Source: a virus (taxonomy: Duplodnaviria > Heunggongvirae > Uroviricota > Caudoviricetes). Taken from it: 10,932 bases of DNA. The translations under genes were made by a program, and so were the position numbers. Under the pieces are notes generated by a model that did no database searches, was not told the origin of the DNA, and was given only the letters and a program-made list of their open reading frames with translations. The stretch is from IMG/VR virus record IMGVR_UViG_3300020045_012956, positions 64,001 through 74,932 of that record. One strand, given 5' to 3'. Below, piece by piece: positions 2,517-10,932 of this stretch (position 1 is the first letter of the stretch; each line of letters opens with the position of its first letter).

Positions 2517-2915
2517 TTATTCAAAAATCTCAATCAACTCATTTAATTTAAGATAAACTTGAAACATTCCATAACTGTAATTATCATTATAAATATAATT
2601 CCATAGTTTTTCTCTATACTTTTCAGGAACTATTTCAATATTTGAGTGTTTTTTAATAAAAATTTCAATTAAGTTTTCAATATATTGGTATCTTTCTTTC
2701 CAATTTTCCAACTCTTTATTATATTTATCTAATTTCTCATTATAAGAACCAAAATCATTAGCATATTCTAGAATTTCAATATGATTATGATTTTCTTTTA
2801 ATTTGGGTTCAATTGGTTTTTGAGGCTTTTCGTTTTGTAATTTTTCAAGTTCTTTTAATGTTTCATAAACTGAAAGATTCCAGTTTTCTACAATTTCTAA
2901 TGTTAACTTTTCCAT
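2517..2915 (-). CDS. Hypothetical phage protein (132 aa, helical, E/K-rich), probable early gene
   Basis: ATG with A-rich leader 26 nt downstream of a TAATTTTG -7 box. KPQKPIEPKL linker followed by a helical segment. No function recognised. Confidence 0.7.
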   Translation of the reverse strand: MEKLTLEIVENWNLSVYETLKELEKLQNEKPQKPIEPKLKENHNHIEILEYANDFGSYNEKLDKYNKELENWKERYQYIENLIEIFIKKHSNIEIVPEKYREKLWNYIYNDNYSYGMFQVYLKLNELIEIFE

Positions 2916-2941
2916 TTTATTTTCTTTTTAATTTCTTGTTA

Positions 2942-2975
2942 CAAAATTACATCTTTTAGTAATACGATTTACAAA
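2942..2975 (-). promoter_or_regulatory. Leftward Bacteroidota-type promoter, cassette C1
   Basis: Minus strand TTTG (2975-2972), 22 nt, TAATTTTG (2949-2942). Matches the TTTG / TAnnTTTG consensus, slightly longer than the usual 19-21 nt spacing. Confidence 0.7.
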
Positions 2976-3038
2976 AATTGTAAAATAAATTTACAAAACT
3001 TGTTTAACTATCTGAAAATCAATGATAATAATTTTTAT
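2942..3038. repeat. Dispersed regulatory cassette, copy C1 (-7 box, TTTAGTAATAC, two TTTACAA-N3-TTGTAAA-like palindromes)
   Basis: Aligns without gaps to 8180-8276 (79/97 identical by hand count). Palindromes at 2968-2984 and 2990-3006. Confidence 0.9.
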
Positions 3039-3059
3039 AAAATACTCGAAAATATTTTT

Positions 3060-4196: not shown

Positions 4197-5083
4197 TACC
4201 CATTCAAAAAGGTGCAATAGGACCTAAAGTTTTAGAAATACAACTAGCATTAAAAAAGTCAGGTATCAATATTGATGCTGATTCTCAATTTGGTAATGAT
4301 ACCGAAAAGGCTGTTATTCAATTTCAGGAATTAAATAATTTAGAAGTCGATGGAATTGTAGGAGAACAAACCTATAATTTATTAGTTTTAGGTAAAAGAA
4401 TAGAAGTAAAAAAAGGTTCTTTGAATTGCGTTGACTTGGTTTATCATACAAATGATTATTACAAATCAATCAATAATAAGAATCAAATTTGTTTACACCA
4501 TACAGCAGGGCCCGCAAGTGCTAAAAATACCATTGATTGGTGGTTAACTGATATTAATTCAACGGGCACAGCCTTTGTTATAGGGGGTAAAGATGGTAAA
4601 AAGGACGGGGAAATAGTTGAGGCGCACCCTTCCGAAAATTGGCAATGGCATTTAGGAGTAGACCCTAAATTTTCAAATGGATTCTCAAATAGAGATAAAA
4701 ACGGGGTTATTTTAGATTCAAAATGTATTGGAATTGAAATTTGTAATTGGGGTTACTTGAATAAGTCAGGTAATAACTTTTTTAGTTATGCTGGTACAAT
4801 AGTAAATTCAAATGATGTTTGCGACTTAGGCAAAAAAATAAGAGGTAAACAATATTTTCAAAAATATACAGATAATCAAATTAATTCAACAAAAAAACTA
4901 TTGCTAGAATTAGCAGAAAAACACTCAATTGAATTGCATAAAACTTATGATTGGAGTTGGTTTGAGTTATCAAATGATGCTTTAAGTGGTAAAAGTGGGG
5001 TTTGGAATCATTGTAATTTTAGAAGTGATAAAATTGATATTTACCCACAACAAGAAATGTTAGATATGTTAAACAGTTTATAA
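4193..5083 (+). CDS. Endolysin: N-terminal peptidoglycan-binding domain (PG_binding_1) plus N-acetylmuramoyl-L-alanine amidase (Amidase_2)
   Basis: KGAIGPKVLEIQLAL...DADSQFGNDTEKAVIQFQ...LEVDGIVGEQT (PG-binding). ICLHHTAG, WQWHLG, IGIEICNWG, YTDNQI, HCNFRSDKIDIYPQ (Zn-amidase motifs). Confidence 0.9.
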   Translation: MIPIQKGAIGPKVLEIQLALKKSGINIDADSQFGNDTEKAVIQFQELNNLEVDGIVGEQTYNLLVLGKRIEVKKGSLNCVDLVYHTNDYYKSINNKNQICLHHTAGPASAKNTIDWWLTDINSTGTAFVIGGKDGKKDGEIVEAHPSENWQWHLGVDPKFSNGFSNRDKNGVILDSKCIGIEICNWGYLNKSGNNFFSYAGTIVNSNDVCDLGKKIRGKQYFQKYTDNQINSTKKLLLELAEKHSIELHKTYDWSWFELSNDALSGKSGVWNHCNFRSDKIDIYPQQEMLDMLNSL

Positions 5084-5094
5084 TAATAAAAAAA

Positions 5095-5394
5095 ATGAAA
5101 AAAGTAGATTATACACAAGCCATTGAGGCTCTTTTGAATAGTAAAATAGTTAAACGTTCAATACATCCAGAAGGAACGTTTATTTTTAGACAAGTTCCAA
5201 GTGAAATATCTAGTGATATTATTCCAAAAATGCAATCTTTGCCTCAATCTGTTAAAGATGAGTTTGCAAAAAGAGAATCTAAAAGTATAAAATATGATAA
5301 TCAATTTGCGATTGTTGATATTGATAATAATATACAAGGTTGGAAACCAGAACCGCAAGATTTTCTTGCAAAAGATTGGATAATTATTGAATAA
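5095..5394 (+). CDS. DUF2829 / Thoeris anti-defence 2 (Tad2)-like protein
   Basis: 99 aa. N-terminal QAIEALLNSKIVKR, central FIF...QSLPQSVK insertion, C-terminal GWKPEPQDFLAKDW, matching the family's ALEALK-G-KV-R ... GW-x-(P/A)S-x-x-D-x-LA-x-DW pattern (recalled). Confidence 0.8.
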   Translation: MKKVDYTQAIEALLNSKIVKRSIHPEGTFIFRQVPSEISSDIIPKMQSLPQSVKDEFAKRESKSIKYDNQFAIVDIDNNIQGWKPEPQDFLAKDWIIIE

Positions 5395-5404
5395 ATTTAT
5401 AAAA

Positions 5405-6558: not shown

Positions 6559-6598
6559 AAGCCGTTAGAATTGATTCTAACGGCTTTTATTTTTTTTA
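6559..6598 (+). terminator. Intrinsic terminator T2
   Basis: AAGCCGTTAGAA-TTGA-TTCTAACGGCTT, a 12-bp perfect stem followed by TTATTTTTTTT. Lies between convergent genes. Confidence 0.9.
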
Positions 6599-7435
6599 AT
6601 ATTTTGGTTTTGGTGGATTATTTTCTCTTTGTTTATCTGCTATTTCTTGCATTTTTATTTTTAAGTCGGGATTTCTTTTTAAATATCCTTGAATAGCATG
6701 TTGTGTACAATCATAATGTTTTGCAATAGATATTATACTAAATTCCTTTTTATAAATTGAAAGTATAACTTTATCTTCAAACATAATATCTAAATTCAAG
6801 TTTTTCTCTTTCTTTTTAGGTTTTACAACTTTTTCAACCATATTATTATCAATACAATATTTTGAAATTGTTAATCTGTTTATTTTCAAAAGTCTACCAA
6901 TTGCAGAGTATGAAAGTTTTTTATTTAGAAATGATTGTATTTTTGCTTTTAATGGATCACATTTAGTACTCTTAGACTTATTACCTAAAGGTCTACCCAA
7001 AACAACACCATCTGATTTTCTTTTCGCTAAGCCCTCTTTAGTTCTTTTTGAAATCATATCTCTTTCAATTTCAGCGGCTAATCCAAATGCAAAAGCCATT
7101 ACTTTACTTTGAATATTATTACCTAATTCGTAACCATCCTTAACTGTATAAACTTGACATTCATGCTTCATACAGTGTTCTAGAATTCGCATAACCATAA
7201 ATAAAGAGCGTCCAAGCCTTGAAATTTCAGAAGCAATAATAACATCTTTAGGTTTTATTTTCTTTAGCAATTTACCTAGTTGTCTTTCTTCAGGTTCTTT
7301 TGTTCCTGAAATACCATCATCAGAAATCCAAGTGTTAATTTCTAATCCTAAAGAAGTAGCTTTTTCAATGATTCCTATCTTTTGTCCCTCTACTTCTTGC
7401 TTATCTGTTGAAACTCTTATATAACCGTAAACCAT
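6596..7435 (-). CDS. Small serine recombinase (resolvase/invertase), Mpi-like, with extended C-terminus carrying two putative HTH motifs
   Basis: YGYIRVST (catalytic Ser9), GISG, EISRLGRS, IQSKVMAFAFGLAAEIERDMISKRTKEGL, GVVLGRP. Closely resembles the recalled Bacteroides Mpi sequence over about aa 1-154. HTH-like segments at about aa 164-194 and 222-254. Confidence 0.92.
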   Translation of the reverse strand: MVYGYIRVSTDKQEVEGQKIGIIEKATSLGLEINTWISDDGISGTKEPEERQLGKLLKKIKPKDVIIASEISRLGRSLFMVMRILEHCMKHECQVYTVKDGYELGNNIQSKVMAFAFGLAAEIERDMISKRTKEGLAKRKSDGVVLGRPLGNKSKSTKCDPLKAKIQSFLNKKLSYSAIGRLLKINRLTISKYCIDNNMVEKVVKPKKKEKNLNLDIMFEDKVILSIYKKEFSIISIAKHYDCTQHAIQGYLKRNPDLKIKMQEIADKQRENNPPKPKY

Positions 7436-7438
7436 TTT

Positions 7439-7774
7439 TTAACTATTAAAATAAGCTTGTCTAATACATTTTAATTCATAAAGCAATAGAAATAATTTAT
7501 TTTTAATTATATCATCTCTAGTCTCTATTAATTTTACAAGTTTATCGTTTCTAATATCTATTAGTTTGAATCCATCTGTAAAATCTCCATCATTACAATA
7601 TAACTTATTAAATTCTAAAGGTCTATAAAATAAGCAATTAGACCATTTATTAAATTTAAAATTAGCTATATCAAAAATATCTATTTCATTAAAAAAACTT
7701 TTATCTTTTTTTATAATAGTTAATGATGGATTTTGTCTATCAAAATTAACTATTGTATATGTTTTATTTTTCAT
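7439..7774 (-). CDS. Hypothetical protein (111 aa)
   Basis: ATG overlaps the upstream stop (TAATG); its stop is 3 nt before the recombinase ATG, giving a compact operon. Confidence 0.65.
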   Translation of the reverse strand: MKNKTYTIVNFDRQNPSLTIIKKDKSFFNEIDIFDIANFKFNKWSNCLFYRPLEFNKLYCNDGDFTDGFKLIDIRNDKLVKLIETRDDIIKNKLFLLLYELKCIRQAYFNS

Positions 7775-8136
7775 TACTTAACTATTTTGTATTGTGAATT
7801 TCCTAAGTCTCTAAAATCTTTTAATTCCTTTTTGTTAATGTTATTTGCACAATAAATTTGATCTTTTTGGTTTGATTCAAAATATAAAATATTTGCATTG
7901 AATTTTGAAATTAAAGAATCTTTTGTAACTAATTTTCTTTCAATTAATATTTCAAAAGCTTCAATTGTAGTTACATATTCAAATTTACCAATTGTAAATT
8001 TAACTAATTGATGAACTTTATTTTTACCATTTGAGAATAAAGCATTGTATTTCTTTTCCATGCTTTTTTCAATTTGTGCAAATTCATTTTTGCTTACTTT
8101 GTTGTTTGATGCGAACATTGTTAAATCTAATTTCAT
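7774..8136 (-). CDS. Hypothetical protein (120 aa), first gene of the recombinase operon
   Basis: ATG with A-rich leader 43 nt downstream of TATATTTG. No motif recognised. Confidence 0.7.
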   Translation of the reverse strand: MKLDLTMFASNNKVSKNEFAQIEKSMEKKYNALFSNGKNKVHQLVKFTIGKFEYVTTIEAFEILIERKLVTKDSLISKFNANILYFESNQKDQIYCANNINKKELKDFRDLGNSQYKIVK

Positions 8137-8148
8137 TTTCTTATTTCT

Positions 8149-8276
8149 TTAAGTCTTAGCTACATTGCTTTTGACATCACAAATATAGTGGGTTTAGTAA
8201 TACGATTTACAAAACTTGTAAAATATTTTTACAAGTTTTGTGTAACTTGTTGAAAATCAATGAGAATAATTTTTAT
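8149..8276. repeat. Dispersed regulatory cassette, copy C2
   Basis: 8149-8247 aligns without gaps to 9171-9269 (84/99 by hand count, including a 31-bp perfect match 8210-8240 / 9232-9262). Contains the inverted repeat ACAAAACTTGTAAAA-TAT-TTTTACAAGTTTTGT (8209-8241). Confidence 0.95.
8180..8213 (-). promoter_or_regulatory. Leftward promoter, cassette C2 (drives the recombinase operon)
   Basis: Minus strand TTTG (8213-8210), 22 nt, TATATTTG (8187-8180). Confidence 0.75.
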
Positions 8277-8300
8277 TTTTCTTTTATCAAATATTTTAAC

Positions 8301-8308
8301 TACCTTTG
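8301..8308 (+). promoter_or_regulatory. Rightward -7 box, cassette C2
   Basis: TACCTTTG with ATG 4 nt later. No canonical TTTG at -33; CTTTTATCAAA upstream is shared with C3. Confidence 0.6.
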
Positions 8309-8312
8309 TATT

Positions 8313-8813
8313 ATGAATTCGAAAACAGCATTAAAAGAAATAAACCAAGCTATTAAATTAAAGTTTCCTGAAGTTGAAAGACCTTTAGAACTTGAATTTG
8401 AGAAAGATATTTTAGTTTCAATTGATTCTAAAGAAAAATCAGTAAGTTTTGATGTTTTAACTTATTCTATGTATACTAGATATTTAGATGAGATTAGATT
8501 CATTGAAAAACCTAAATTTACTTCAAATCAATCTATTTTCTTAGCAAGTGCAAAGATTAGAACGGTTTTAATTGGTAAAAATAAAGATATTTATCAATTA
8601 GGGCATAAGTTAGTACAAATGCTTAATAACATAAAAATAAACAACATAACAGCTATTAAGCTAAAAGAAGTTAAAACAATGCATGATGTTTTGATTAAAG
8701 AAGAGTTTGTATTAAAAGAAAATGATTTATTTAAGGACGCAAAAACTGGTATAGGTGCAATTGATTATGAAATAGAATTTTATTTTGATTGTAATGATGA
8801 AAATTGTATTTGA
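8313..8813 (+). CDS. Putative tail terminator / completion-type protein (166 aa)
   Basis: Start moved from the track's TTG at 8238 (inside the cassette palindrome) to the ATG at 8313 after the -7 box. Size, alpha/beta pattern and terminal AIDYEIEF strand fit gpU/gp17-like folds; weak inference. Confidence 0.4.
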   Translation: MNSKTALKEINQAIKLKFPEVERPLELEFEKDILVSIDSKEKSVSFDVLTYSMYTRYLDEIRFIEKPKFTSNQSIFLASAKIRTVLIGKNKDIYQLGHKLVQMLNNIKINNITAIKLKEVKTMHDVLIKEEFVLKENDLFKDAKTGIGAIDYEIEFYFDCNDENCI

Positions 8814-8850
8814 AAAAAGCCGTTAGGATTTATTCTAACGGCTTTTATTA
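8813..8850. terminator. Bidirectional intrinsic terminator T3, near-identical to T2
   Basis: AAAAGCCGTTAG...CTAACGGCTTTT (8815-8846), with a T-tract on the + side and an A6 tract on the other. 31/33 nt identical to 6559-6591. Confidence 0.9.
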
Positions 8851-8851
8851 T

Positions 8852-9160
8852 TTATATTTTCTTTAACCAATAATGTTTGGTTTTTTCTTTAATAAAATCT
8901 CCATGATCTATTGATTTTTCACCAATATAAATTAAAGAATTTGCATCTTTCTTTTTGCAAATTTCATAACCTATTGATTTAATATAGTCTTTTTCTAATC
9001 CAGTAACGCAATTAGATTTTTCCCAAGCCCAAGTAAATTGAGATTCTTGTAAATCATTGCATAATTCAACTGATAGTATTTTAGCACCATTTGACTTATT
9101 ACGAATGCAATTAAGTGTAGTTTCTTTAACATCTGAATGAAATTGTTCTAATCGAGTCAT
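8852..9160 (-). CDS. Hypothetical protein (102 aa), probable early gene
   Basis: The track's GTG start at 9202 overlaps the -7 box, so the in-frame ATG at 9160 (MTRLEQF...) is preferred. Confidence 0.65.
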   Translation of the reverse strand: MTRLEQFHSDVKETTLNCIRNKSNGAKILSVELCNDLQESQFTWAWEKSNCVTGLEKDYIKSIGYEICKKKDANSLIYIGEKSIDHGDFIKEKTKHYWLKKI

Positions 9161-9170
9161 AAAAAAAATA

Positions 9171-9299
9171 TTAAGTCTTAGCCTTGTTGCTTTTGACATC
9201 ACAAAGATAAATGATTTAGTAATACAAAACGCAAAACTTGTAAAATATTTTTACAAGTTTTGCGTAACTAATTGATTATTAGTTAAATAATTTTTAATT
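9171..9299. repeat. Dispersed regulatory cassette, copy C3
   Basis: Offset 1022 bp from C2. Inverted repeat ACGCAAAACTTGTAAAA-TAT-TTTTACAAGTTTTGCGT (9229-9265). Confidence 0.95.
9202..9235 (-). promoter_or_regulatory. Leftward promoter, cassette C3
   Basis: Minus strand TTTG (9235-9232), 22 nt, TATCTTTG (9209-9202). Confidence 0.75.
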
Positions 9300-9320
9300 T
9301 TCTTTTATCAAATAAAACAT

Positions 9321-9926: not shown

Positions 9927-9934
9927 TAAATTTG
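9927..9934 (+). promoter_or_regulatory. Possible -7 box for the last gene
   Basis: TAAATTTG in the 47-nt intergenic gap, 15 nt before the ATG at 9950. Confidence 0.45.
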
Positions 9935-9949
9935 CAGAAAATCTACAAT

Positions 9950-10932
9950 ATGGCAACATGCGAATTATGTAATTGTTTTGATTTGGGGTGTTCTCCAAAT
10001 TGTTGCAATTTTGAATTTATACTCAATGATACCCCCGTTTTAGCAACTCAAGACGGTTTACATATTTTATCTTACATTCAAGAGGGTCAAGACAATAAAA
10101 ACGGTGGATTACAGTTTTTAATTGGTGACCCTATTGTTTTTCCTGCAAGTTGGTTTAATTCTCAAGGTTTAGTTAAATTTCAATTAACTTTGCCGGATGG
10201 TGAAATTTTCACTTATCAAACTTACACATGTTTTGAGTTTGAAAGAATCATTTCAACAACACCCGAAACAAGCGAAAGTATTCAATGTTTAGGTTCAAAT
10301 AATCCAAATGACATTTGTACAGTTTGCGACCTTTTGGCAGCTTTAGGAGTAAGTTCACAATTATTAGTAGAAATACGCAATAATACTTTATTTCTTGATA
10401 CTCCACTTTCTCAATTAGGGAAAGAAGCGACTTTACAAGACATTTTAACTGCTATTAATGGTAGTGGTGGTAATTATGCCCTAGAATCTACTTTGCAGCT
10501 TGTTTTAACGGCTTTGAGTGGAATTGCATTAGATAGTACTTTGCAAAGTATTTTAACTGCTTTAGGTACAGGATTAGCACAAGAAACAACATTACAAACA
10601 GTTGCAAAAGAAACCTCTTTGCAGGCTGTTATAACGGCTTTAAGTGGATTGAGTACAGAAACTACATTAGGTAGTGTTTTAACTCAATTACAAAACTTAA
10701 ATTTAGTTGACTTTAGTACAGAAACAACCTTACAAGCTTTATTATTAGCTATTCAAAATTTGCCCGCTGGTGGGGACGCTACGGCCGCAAATCAAGTACT
10801 TGAAATTGCAGAACTAACAACACTAAACGCAAAGGATTTTAGTACAGAAACAACTTTACAAAGCGTTTTAGCAGCCTTATTACTTTCAGGGCAAGAATTA
10901 ACCCTACAAAGCATTTTAACTGCTTTAGTACC
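9950..10932 (+). CDS. 3'-truncated repeat-rich, putative fibre / coiled-coil virion protein with Cys-rich N-terminus; absent from the ORF track
   Basis: Open from ATG 9950 to the window end (327 codons, no stop): MATCELCNCFDLGCSPNCC..., then nine E-T-T-L-Q-x-(I/V)-L-T-A-L-type repeats from 10421, plus GDATAANQ. Confidence 0.75.
   Translation, partial: MATCELCNCFDLGCSPNCCNFEFILNDTPVLATQDGLHILSYIQEGQDNKNGGLQFLIGDPIVFPASWFNSQGLVKFQLTLPDGEIFTYQTYTCFEFERIISTTPETSESIQCLGSNNPNDICTVCDLLAALGVSSQLLVEIRNNTLFLDTPLSQLGKEATLQDILTAINGSGGNYALESTLQLVLTALSGIALDSTLQSILTALGTGLAQETTLQTVAKETSLQAVITALSGLSTETTLGSVLTQLQNLNLVDFSTETTLQALLLAIQNLPAGGDATAANQVLEIAELTTLNAKDFSTETTLQSVLAALLLSGQELTLQSILTALV

Follow-up and report, generated by a model that had tools for sequence, protein, structure and literature searches.

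A long Mpi-type serine recombinase with a second predicted helix-turn-helix domain in an uncultured phage

The gene at positions 6596 to 7435 (minus strand) of the 10,932-nucleotide stretch of DNA analysed here (the window) encodes a protein of 279 amino acids, P0001, which we assign with high confidence to the small serine recombinases of the Mpi lineage. From its sequence, P0001 is predicted to be catalytically competent, belongs to a long subfamily characterized by a bipartite tail, and is encoded by the last gene of a cassette-driven operon. Our best explanation as a whole joins this identity and architecture to action in trans on the host, and in that complete form it is a tentative one, quite possibly correct but not yet to be called probable.

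Results

The recombinase gene lies in an uncultured phage that looks virulent

The window is the final 10.9 kb of IMG/VR record IMGVR_UViG_3300020045_012956, a complete record of 74,932 bp with 121-bp direct terminal repeats and a GC content of 27%. A first-pass annotation, made from the window alone, had described the recombinase as phage-encoded; this proved correct, as indicated by the IMG/VR record, its terminal repeats and the presence of terminase, ERF and ThyX genes. No match to GenBank phages was found when the window was searched by megablast, and we regard the source as an uncultured 75-kb phage with a putative Bacteroidota-type host. A Pfam census of 93 proteins whose genes precede window position 2232 identified ThyX, dCTP deaminase, ERF, NinB, DNA methylase, terminase, helicases and an intein endonuclease. 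The same census returned two HTH_36 proteins, a Bro-N/ANT protein and a DnaA-C HTH, and a six-frame search of the genome found no HTH_3 protein of the Cro/CI type. Additionally, neither an integrase nor a CI-type repressor was found in the phage genome, and judged by this gene content the phage looks virulent. The complete genome encodes no tyrosine recombinase, and P0001 is its sole serine recombinase and its sole site-specific recombinase.

Two observations concern other parts of the window. A lake-water contig ∼95% identical to the window joins position 5076 straight to 5396 (gap 5077–5395) and so lacks the 99-amino acid ORF at 5095–5394. At the right end, an ORF at 9932–10930 runs off the end of the record and contains many repeats, spaced by ∼42 nt, which encode (E/S)TTLQxxLxAL-like units. 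The product looks like a fibre-like protein, and the ORF is likely to run on through the terminal repeat and into the beginning of the genome.

Residues 1–199 match the Mpi family and retain the catalytic residues

Amino acids 2–144 of P0001 match the Pfam Resolvase domain (PF00239, E 2e-32), and amino acids 1–214 match PHROG 125, ‘DNA invertase’ (E 9e-46). The NCBIfam model for the Mpi family, NF009949, aligned with amino acids 1–199 across 198 of its 203 profile positions with a score of 268.6 bits. Because this score is 3.4 bits below the equivalog cut-off of 272 bits, a near miss, we refer to P0001 as Mpi-type or Mpi-like and not as an equivalog; the same shortfall stands against the Mpi-based, host-directed reading of its function discussed below. 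Over residues 1–199, P0001 is 57–64% identical to NCBI-named Mpi proteins (Weeksella, Dysgonomonas), while its relatives with solved structures, Gin, gamma-delta, Tn3 and Sin, each show ∼25% identity. The catalytic domain, E-helix and first helix-turn-helix (HTH1) of Mpi (Ssr2/FinA), the master DNA invertase of Bacteroides fragilis, are collinear with this region. P0001 also has the family likeness of a serine, Ser72, where gamma-delta resolvase has Asp67.

The catalytic resolvase domain and E-helix correspond to amino acids 1–144 (7004–7435, minus strand), as supported by the Pfam match, by structural similarity to 1zr2 and by invariant columns. R7, S9, R73, R76 and E124/R125 are all present in P0001 and are invariant across 28 long homologues, and P0001 thus has the nucleophilic serine and conserved arginines of the small serine recombinases. 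The claim of an Mpi-like N-terminal part with intact catalytic motifs, made in the first-pass annotation, is borne out by these residues and by the NF009949 match. That no catalytic residue varies within the phage clade argues for selection on catalysis and not on binding alone.

This conservation also bears on the possibility that the gene is an inert passenger, or is decaying, and has no current function. Close relatives of the phage do live without it. However, the reading frame is full length, and 28 homologues, with identities as low as 48%, show no change at any catalytic or structural position; the architecture of the extra domain described below is likewise conserved. We consider a functionless gene very improbable.

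P0001 differs from other groups of serine recombinases. Large serine integrases exceed 400 amino acids and contain recombinase, zinc-ribbon and coiled-coil domains, whereas P0001, at 279 residues, has a small HTH as its tail. Gin (Mu), Cin (P1), Pin (e14) and Hin resemble P0001 as small serine recombinases of the same fold (Gin, 3uj3 and 4m6f) and in being phage-encoded. In contrast to P0001, they adjoin the tail-fibre or flagellin segment that they invert and require Fis and an enhancer; P0001 is only ∼25% identical, carries an extra HTH, and has no such invertible segment beside its gene or elsewhere in the genome. Tn3 and gamma-delta resolvases share with P0001 both fold and domain order (1zr2, 1gdt, 5cy1) but belong to a transposon context, which is lacking here.

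A second helix-turn-helix domain follows the canonical one

In the AF2 model of P0001, a long E-helix (amino acids 108–141) is followed by the canonical recombinase DNA-binding domain, the arrangement of the small serine recombinases. This domain, HTH1, was placed by the model and the alignment at amino acids 160–196 (6848–6958, minus strand), with helices at 160–171, 176–183 and 187–196. Two of its residues, R187 and T189, are invariant in both long and short forms. Foldseek aligned ∼200 columns of the model with DNA-bound gamma-delta resolvase (1zr2, E 5.6e-10), and Tn3 also aligns.

Whereas Mpi has a ∼200-amino acid architecture with a single HTH, P0001 is phage-borne and has 80 extra residues consisting of a linker and a second HTH. 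The linker (amino acids 197–214; 6794–6847, minus strand) is basic, varies in length among the long homologues and is modelled as disordered, with pLDDT below 50. The second HTH domain, together with a terminal helix containing the invariant R270, spans amino acids 215–272 (6620–6793, minus strand), as indicated by alignment, AF2 and HTH profile matches. When the tail was modelled by itself with its own alignment, pLDDT was above 90 across the helices. The first-pass annotation had noted an extension of ∼80 residues (6596–6844) with a second HTH-like segment, FSIISIAKHYDCTQHAIQGYL; this peptide is amino acids 232–252 and forms helices 2 and 3 of the second helical domain in the AF2 model. Indeed, the extension contains a second HTH as that annotation claimed, and structure prediction, which it had proposed for the tandem HTH, gave two separate HTH domains with a confident fold for the second.

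Among members of the tail family, 9 of 27 match HTH_28 and 8 of 27 match HTH_23, with CENP-B_N among the other matches. Against the PDB, the tail profile identified the N-terminal HTH of IS21 transposase (E 1.4e-4), and a Foldseek search with the tail model by itself returned weak matches (E >1), every one of them an HTH domain. Because the best matches of the profile among 1.8 billion proteins were long multi-HTH repeat proteins, the module appears to be a generic HTH. A similar bipartite HTH-linker-HTH arrangement is found in transposases (the IS21 IstA N-terminus, the ‘paired-like’ PAI+RED of Tc1/mariner, HTH_23/HTH_28), which likewise have two HTHs and a basic flexible linker. In P0001, however, the modules sit after a serine recombinase catalytic domain, and the similarity is that of generic small HTHs only. 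Amino acids 167–255 also match PHROG 8446, ‘HNH endonuclease’; no sequence similarity was found between the tail and the HNH proteins which neighbour the long-form genes at loci L002 and L008.

Long forms recur on phages and nest among Mpi-named proteins

Relatives of P0001 were sought among 5.8 billion proteins, which returned thousands, and the best 120 were sorted by length. Of these, 51 have at least 255 amino acids and 69 have ∼200. The long homologues align with P0001 over their full length and have its tail architecture in common, including an R270 that is invariant in the last helix. In a tree built on 196 shared residues the long forms were strongly clustered, with 7 changes compared to ∼38 in shuffles. 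They nest among short proteins of the NCBI ‘master DNA invertase Mpi family’ (P0057, P0059, P0091), in a tree whose backbone is poorly supported. Thus, of the phylogenetic comparison with Mpi proposed in the first-pass annotation, the nesting among Mpi-named proteins came through while the backbone stayed weak. Given this nesting, the long form is therefore best viewed, on current alignments, as a derived set inside the Mpi radiation and not as a separate family.

The contexts of 14 long-form genes were examined, and all 14 lie on phage contigs, in tight, co-directional arrays of early or replication genes. Adjoining genes encode terminase, DnaB, RecT, ParB-like protein, methylase and exonuclease, and the GC content of the loci ranges from 31% to 53%. 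In cellular genomes, taken as one per prokaryote species, the tail was matched in 2 of the 80 best loci, both on contigs of termite-gut MAGs. The long form appears from these searches to be a recurring subfamily found almost only on phages. Short Mpi-like genes are likewise common in IMG/VR. Short Mpi-type genes 50–61% identical to amino acids 1–199 of P0001 (loci L010–L089) also occur in MAGs labelled Alphaproteobacteria, Treponema, Lachnospiraceae, Elusimicrobiota and others, in addition to Bacteroidota. Either the Mpi-type family is far wider than its name suggests or it is carried by mobile elements.

A literature search for a phage-borne long Mpi form found no paper. What is known is Mpi as a chromosomal invertase; what is new is a distinct long Mpi form with a bipartite DNA-binding tail, widespread on phages.

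The gene ends a three-gene operon and travels as a single-gene module

Two minus-strand ORFs precede the recombinase gene. The ORF directly upstream (7439–7774) encodes 111 amino acids of no known family and is conserved and syntenic in the closest relatives only, with 54–58% identity at L002 and L003. The first gene of the operon, ORF120 (7774–8136), encodes 120 amino acids and has homologues which head operons with other cargo in relatives. The three genes overlap or abut, forming a packed leftward operon with the recombinase last. A Bacteroidota-type -7 box, TATATTTG (8180–8187, minus strand), lies 44 nt upstream of the ORF120 ATG at 8136. The operon and a convergent plus-strand gene both end at a bidirectional terminator hairpin (6559–6586), which was identified by a repeat and hairpin search and has a near copy at 8815–8846. 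Because of the -7 box, the tight operon and the terminator, the recombinase is very probably expressed from the second copy of a repeated promoter cassette described below, which supports the first-pass annotation on its source of expression.

The two terminator hairpins are near-identical over 47 nt (6559–6605 and 8817–8863, 85%) and lie at two convergent gene junctions. The modules at 6559–8293 and 8817–9314 thus have like ends, a cassette and a terminator, and may represent a moron-like unit which was possibly duplicated.

Homologues of ORF120 were found in four contexts. One is the present operon and a second, L178, also includes a recombinase gene. The recombinase is missing from the other two: L181, a syntenic relative in which the ORF120 homologue is followed by other cargo, and L179/L180, an otherwise unrelated phage which has 371 nt in common with the window at 98.9% identity. 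The shared segment is window 7784–8154 (ORF120 and 18 nt upstream), equivalent to L179:7983–8353 and L180:2902–3272, on a 32.7-kb JGI contig and a 17.8-kb wastewater contig, respectively. Such a match points to a very recent gene-sized exchange between different phages. Since homologues of ORF120 head operons with or without the recombinase, the recombinase gene appears to be accessory. It also appears to move as a single-gene module: at L178, DNA homology with the 90%-identical copy P0002 begins 3 bp ahead of the ATG and is lost 8 bp past the stop codon; the flanking genes there (84 amino acids upstream, 119 downstream) are unrelated to anything in the present phage. Because homology stops at the edges of the ORF and the flanks differ, no cis-acting site appears to travel with the gene.

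No neighbour is common to all 14 long-form loci. An HNH_3 endonuclease gene is located within 3.5 kb of the long-form gene in seven of the 14 and directly downstream in four, although L002–L005 are close relatives and the independent cases number fewer than seven. HNH_3 genes of one BLAST-linked family are found directly 3′ of long Mpi-type genes, or separated by one small ORF, at L002:10863–11534, L003:2971–3657, L101:8948–9757 and L008:9136–9999. These neighbours may be homing endonucleases aimed at the conserved recombinase gene.

In 13 of the 14 contexts no inverted repeat was found near the long-form gene. At L006 (2583–2759) there is a perfect 29-bp inverted repeat, with tandem GCGTAAGTG inside and an AT-rich spacer of ∼110 bp. 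It is intergenic and lies just upstream of the operon of P0005, a distant long homologue, and by its position and structure is a candidate invertible promoter of that operon. Patterns for the flipped junctions and repeat arms gave 0 matches in metagenome contigs, where the native form was also absent.

These features raise the possibility that P0001 acts on phage DNA, at an unrecognised site within its own ORF or in another part of the genome, where it would resolve multimers or replication intermediates or, as a self-propagating cassette, promote site-specific crossovers between co-infecting phages. Such a role would fit a gene-sized module with exact ORF boundaries, its sporadic presence in close relatives, its placement in replication and recombination modules, the frequent HNH_3 company and the inverton-like repeat at L006. 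Against it, no conserved flanking site moves along with the gene and the present genome contains no candidate repeat. Likewise, the HNH adjacency may just reflect homing endonucleases that target a highly conserved gene, and the seven cases are not all independent. We regard action on a phage-borne site as the main alternative to the host-directed reading, somewhat unlikely but deserving real weight. In a more specific version, long Mpi-type genes would be autonomous gene-sized mobile cassettes, analogous to free-standing homing endonuclease genes, with a site within or at the edge of their own ORF and spread between co-infecting phages. This would explain the ORF-sized mosaic edges, the sporadic presence and the HNH neighbours; we consider it quite improbable.

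No recombination substrate was found in the phage genome

Small serine recombinases act at a cognate pair of crossover sites near their gene, of the res or gix/hix type, but genome-wide repeat searches found no such pair here and the gene has no conserved flank. Self-BLAST of the whole genome returned only the terminal repeat, copies of the cassette and promoter, the two terminator hairpins, a coding tandem repeat and one 19-bp pair. The latter, a perfect inverted repeat at genome positions 45874/46827, was rejected as a recombination site; it is AT-rich, lies inside coding sequence and, with E 0.035, was judged to be a chance match. At short range (exact inverted 13-mers 40–3000 bp apart), the intergenic pairs detected were the terminators, the cassette palindromes and otherwise only AT-rich pairs attributable to chance. 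Thus, the absence of an invertible segment beside the gene, which the first-pass annotation had already noticed, extends to the whole genome.

No inverton adjoins the gene for P0001, and the same is true of Mpi itself. Unlike Mpi, however, P0001 resides in a genome without the Mpi-type repeat core, ARACGTWCGT; 0 sites of this type were found in the phage genome, where 0.75 would be expected. Full-text literature searches for an Mpi target motif found nothing. Among public sequencing runs, three contain 6–12% of the words of the sequence, as contigs only, and these derive from relatives ∼93–95% identical. No strand-changing joints were present in these contigs, which leave 6936–7300 uncovered and, as contigs, cannot reveal rare isomers.

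The repeated cassettes resemble operator-controlled divergent promoters

Three copies of a 136-nt cassette occur in the window, at 2911–3046, 8149–8284 and 9171–9306. The genome contains four further full copies, at 26.0, 32.9, 42.9 and 56.65 kb, and at least 10 more that are partial and have one promoter arm only; both orientations occur. Copy 2 (8149–8284), delimited by repeat alignment, is a divergent promoter region which serves the recombinase operon leftward and the ORF at 8238–8813 rightward. Every full cassette has an outward-facing TAnnTTTG on each strand, and TAnnTTTG is the -7 element of Bacteroidota promoters. This motif occurs 58 times in the intergenic DNA of the genome compared to 17.8 ± 4.3 in shuffles, a more than threefold enrichment, while sigma-70-type sites showed no enrichment in the genome (23 compared to 20.8).

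Between the two promoters of copy 2 is an operator (8206–8244), apparent from the cassette alignment and divided into half-sites by our own reading. It consists of two tandem 17-bp palindromes, TTTACAA-N3-TTGTAAA and, after N5, TTTACAA-N3-TTGTGTA, with centres 22 bp apart. Each palindrome has an odd centre of symmetry and a spacing of 10 bp between the centres of its half-sites. The leftmost half-site covers part of the place where the -33 element of the leftward promoter would be expected. Dimer sites of serine recombinases (res, hix, gix) are 25–34 bp long with a 2-bp crossover core. Because of the 10-bp half-site spacing and odd centre, compared with 25–34-bp recombinase sites, the geometry of the operator appears to be repressor-like and not crossover-like. 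The palindrome was absent from 15 of 15 loci of long homologues when 7 mismatches in 31 positions were tolerated, and the exact pattern matched three times in IMG/VR, always in an unrelated setting, either coding sequence or a simple hairpin. Read in this way, the cassettes appear to be ordinary operator-controlled divergent promoters and not recombination sites.

One proposal of the first-pass annotation was that P0001 recombines the dispersed cassettes; this could generate genome isomers or excise plug-in modules. The cassettes are indeed the only long repeats and occur in both orientations, for example as an inverted pair of 95 nt (90.5%) at 42.9 and 73.2 kb, and the modules at 6559–8293 and 8817–9314 have both ends in common. 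However, recombination between direct repeats would delete genes, inversions would reverse stretches of essential genes 1 to 47 kb long, and inversion between copies 2 and 3 would alter no pairing of promoter and gene. Additionally, the palindromes are odd-centred and hence have no 2-bp crossover core, the public-run contigs contain no strand-changing joint or other rearranged form, and homologues up to 65% identical exist in phages without the palindrome or the cassettes. The proposal is not supported, and we judge it extremely unlikely. The inverted pair, genome 42854–42948 and 73201–73294 (window 9201–9294), is the best cassette pair; its members lie 30 kb apart and are closer in sequence than most direct pairs.

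A second proposal was that P0001 binds the cassettes as an autoregulating, resolvase-style repressor; in the form considered here it would bind the cassette operators and repress its own operon and the others on the minus strand, while recombining them little or not at all. Autoregulation at res is known from Tn3 and gamma-delta resolvase, and the position of the gene downstream of a divergent promoter region with palindromes recalls that arrangement. The gene lies downstream of a cassette promoter, and the operator reaches into the expected -33 position of that promoter; the four operator half-sites would equal the four HTH modules of a P0001 dimer, and the genome encodes no Cro/CI-type HTH_3 protein. 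Nevertheless, 17-bp palindromes with 10-bp half-site spacing are typical of repressor dimers, in contrast to the 25–34-bp dimer sites of Tn3 and gamma-delta, and the palindrome is missing at all of the long-homologue loci. The strict conservation of catalytic residues also stands against this role. Further, the cassettes must also function in relatives that lack the gene, and the HTH_36, Bro-N/ANT and DnaA-C HTH proteins are other candidates for operator binding. Taken together, a mainly regulatory role is improbable.

Discussion

Mpi acts in trans on at least 13 dispersed invertons (PMC5903667). We favour a trans-acting reading of P0001 because its catalysis is conserved, no cis site travels with its gene, and this characterized relative is itself trans-acting. 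P0001 would be transcribed last in its three-gene leftward operon, from an operator-controlled divergent promoter, and like Mpi it would act in trans on sites unlinked to its gene. These sites would be distinct from the promoter cassettes; the most plausible candidates are invertible or resolvable sites on the chromosome of the host, and the second HTH would extend their recognition or direct it elsewhere. We hold this picture of an accessory, host-directed recombinase to be possible rather than probable. The first-pass annotation had also suggested that P0001 flips promoters of host surface loci. Of its three proposals, action on host invertible promoters appears to fit best with the family, with the absence of a phage-borne substrate and with a gene that travels without a cis site.

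Further points weigh against a host-directed role. The phage looks virulent, and it is unclear how flipping host promoters within one infection cycle would be of benefit. The extra domain is phage-specific and points to sites built differently from those of host Mpi. Lastly, the inverted repeat beside the P0005 operon indicates that some members may act locally on phage DNA.

In gut Bacteroides, Mpi-type invertases act from the chromosome as master switches of surface variation. The present analysis places a long form with a bipartite tail on phages of diverse hosts, as indicated by locus GC of 31% to 53%, where it is widespread in early or replication modules and usually has no adjoining substrate. 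If host invertons are the target, such enzymes could let phages reset phase-variable features of their hosts, be it receptors, capsules or defence systems. If phage DNA is the target, the long forms would constitute an unstudied recombination function. Either way, they provide a defined and readily testable set of compact recombinases with possibly extended site specificity.
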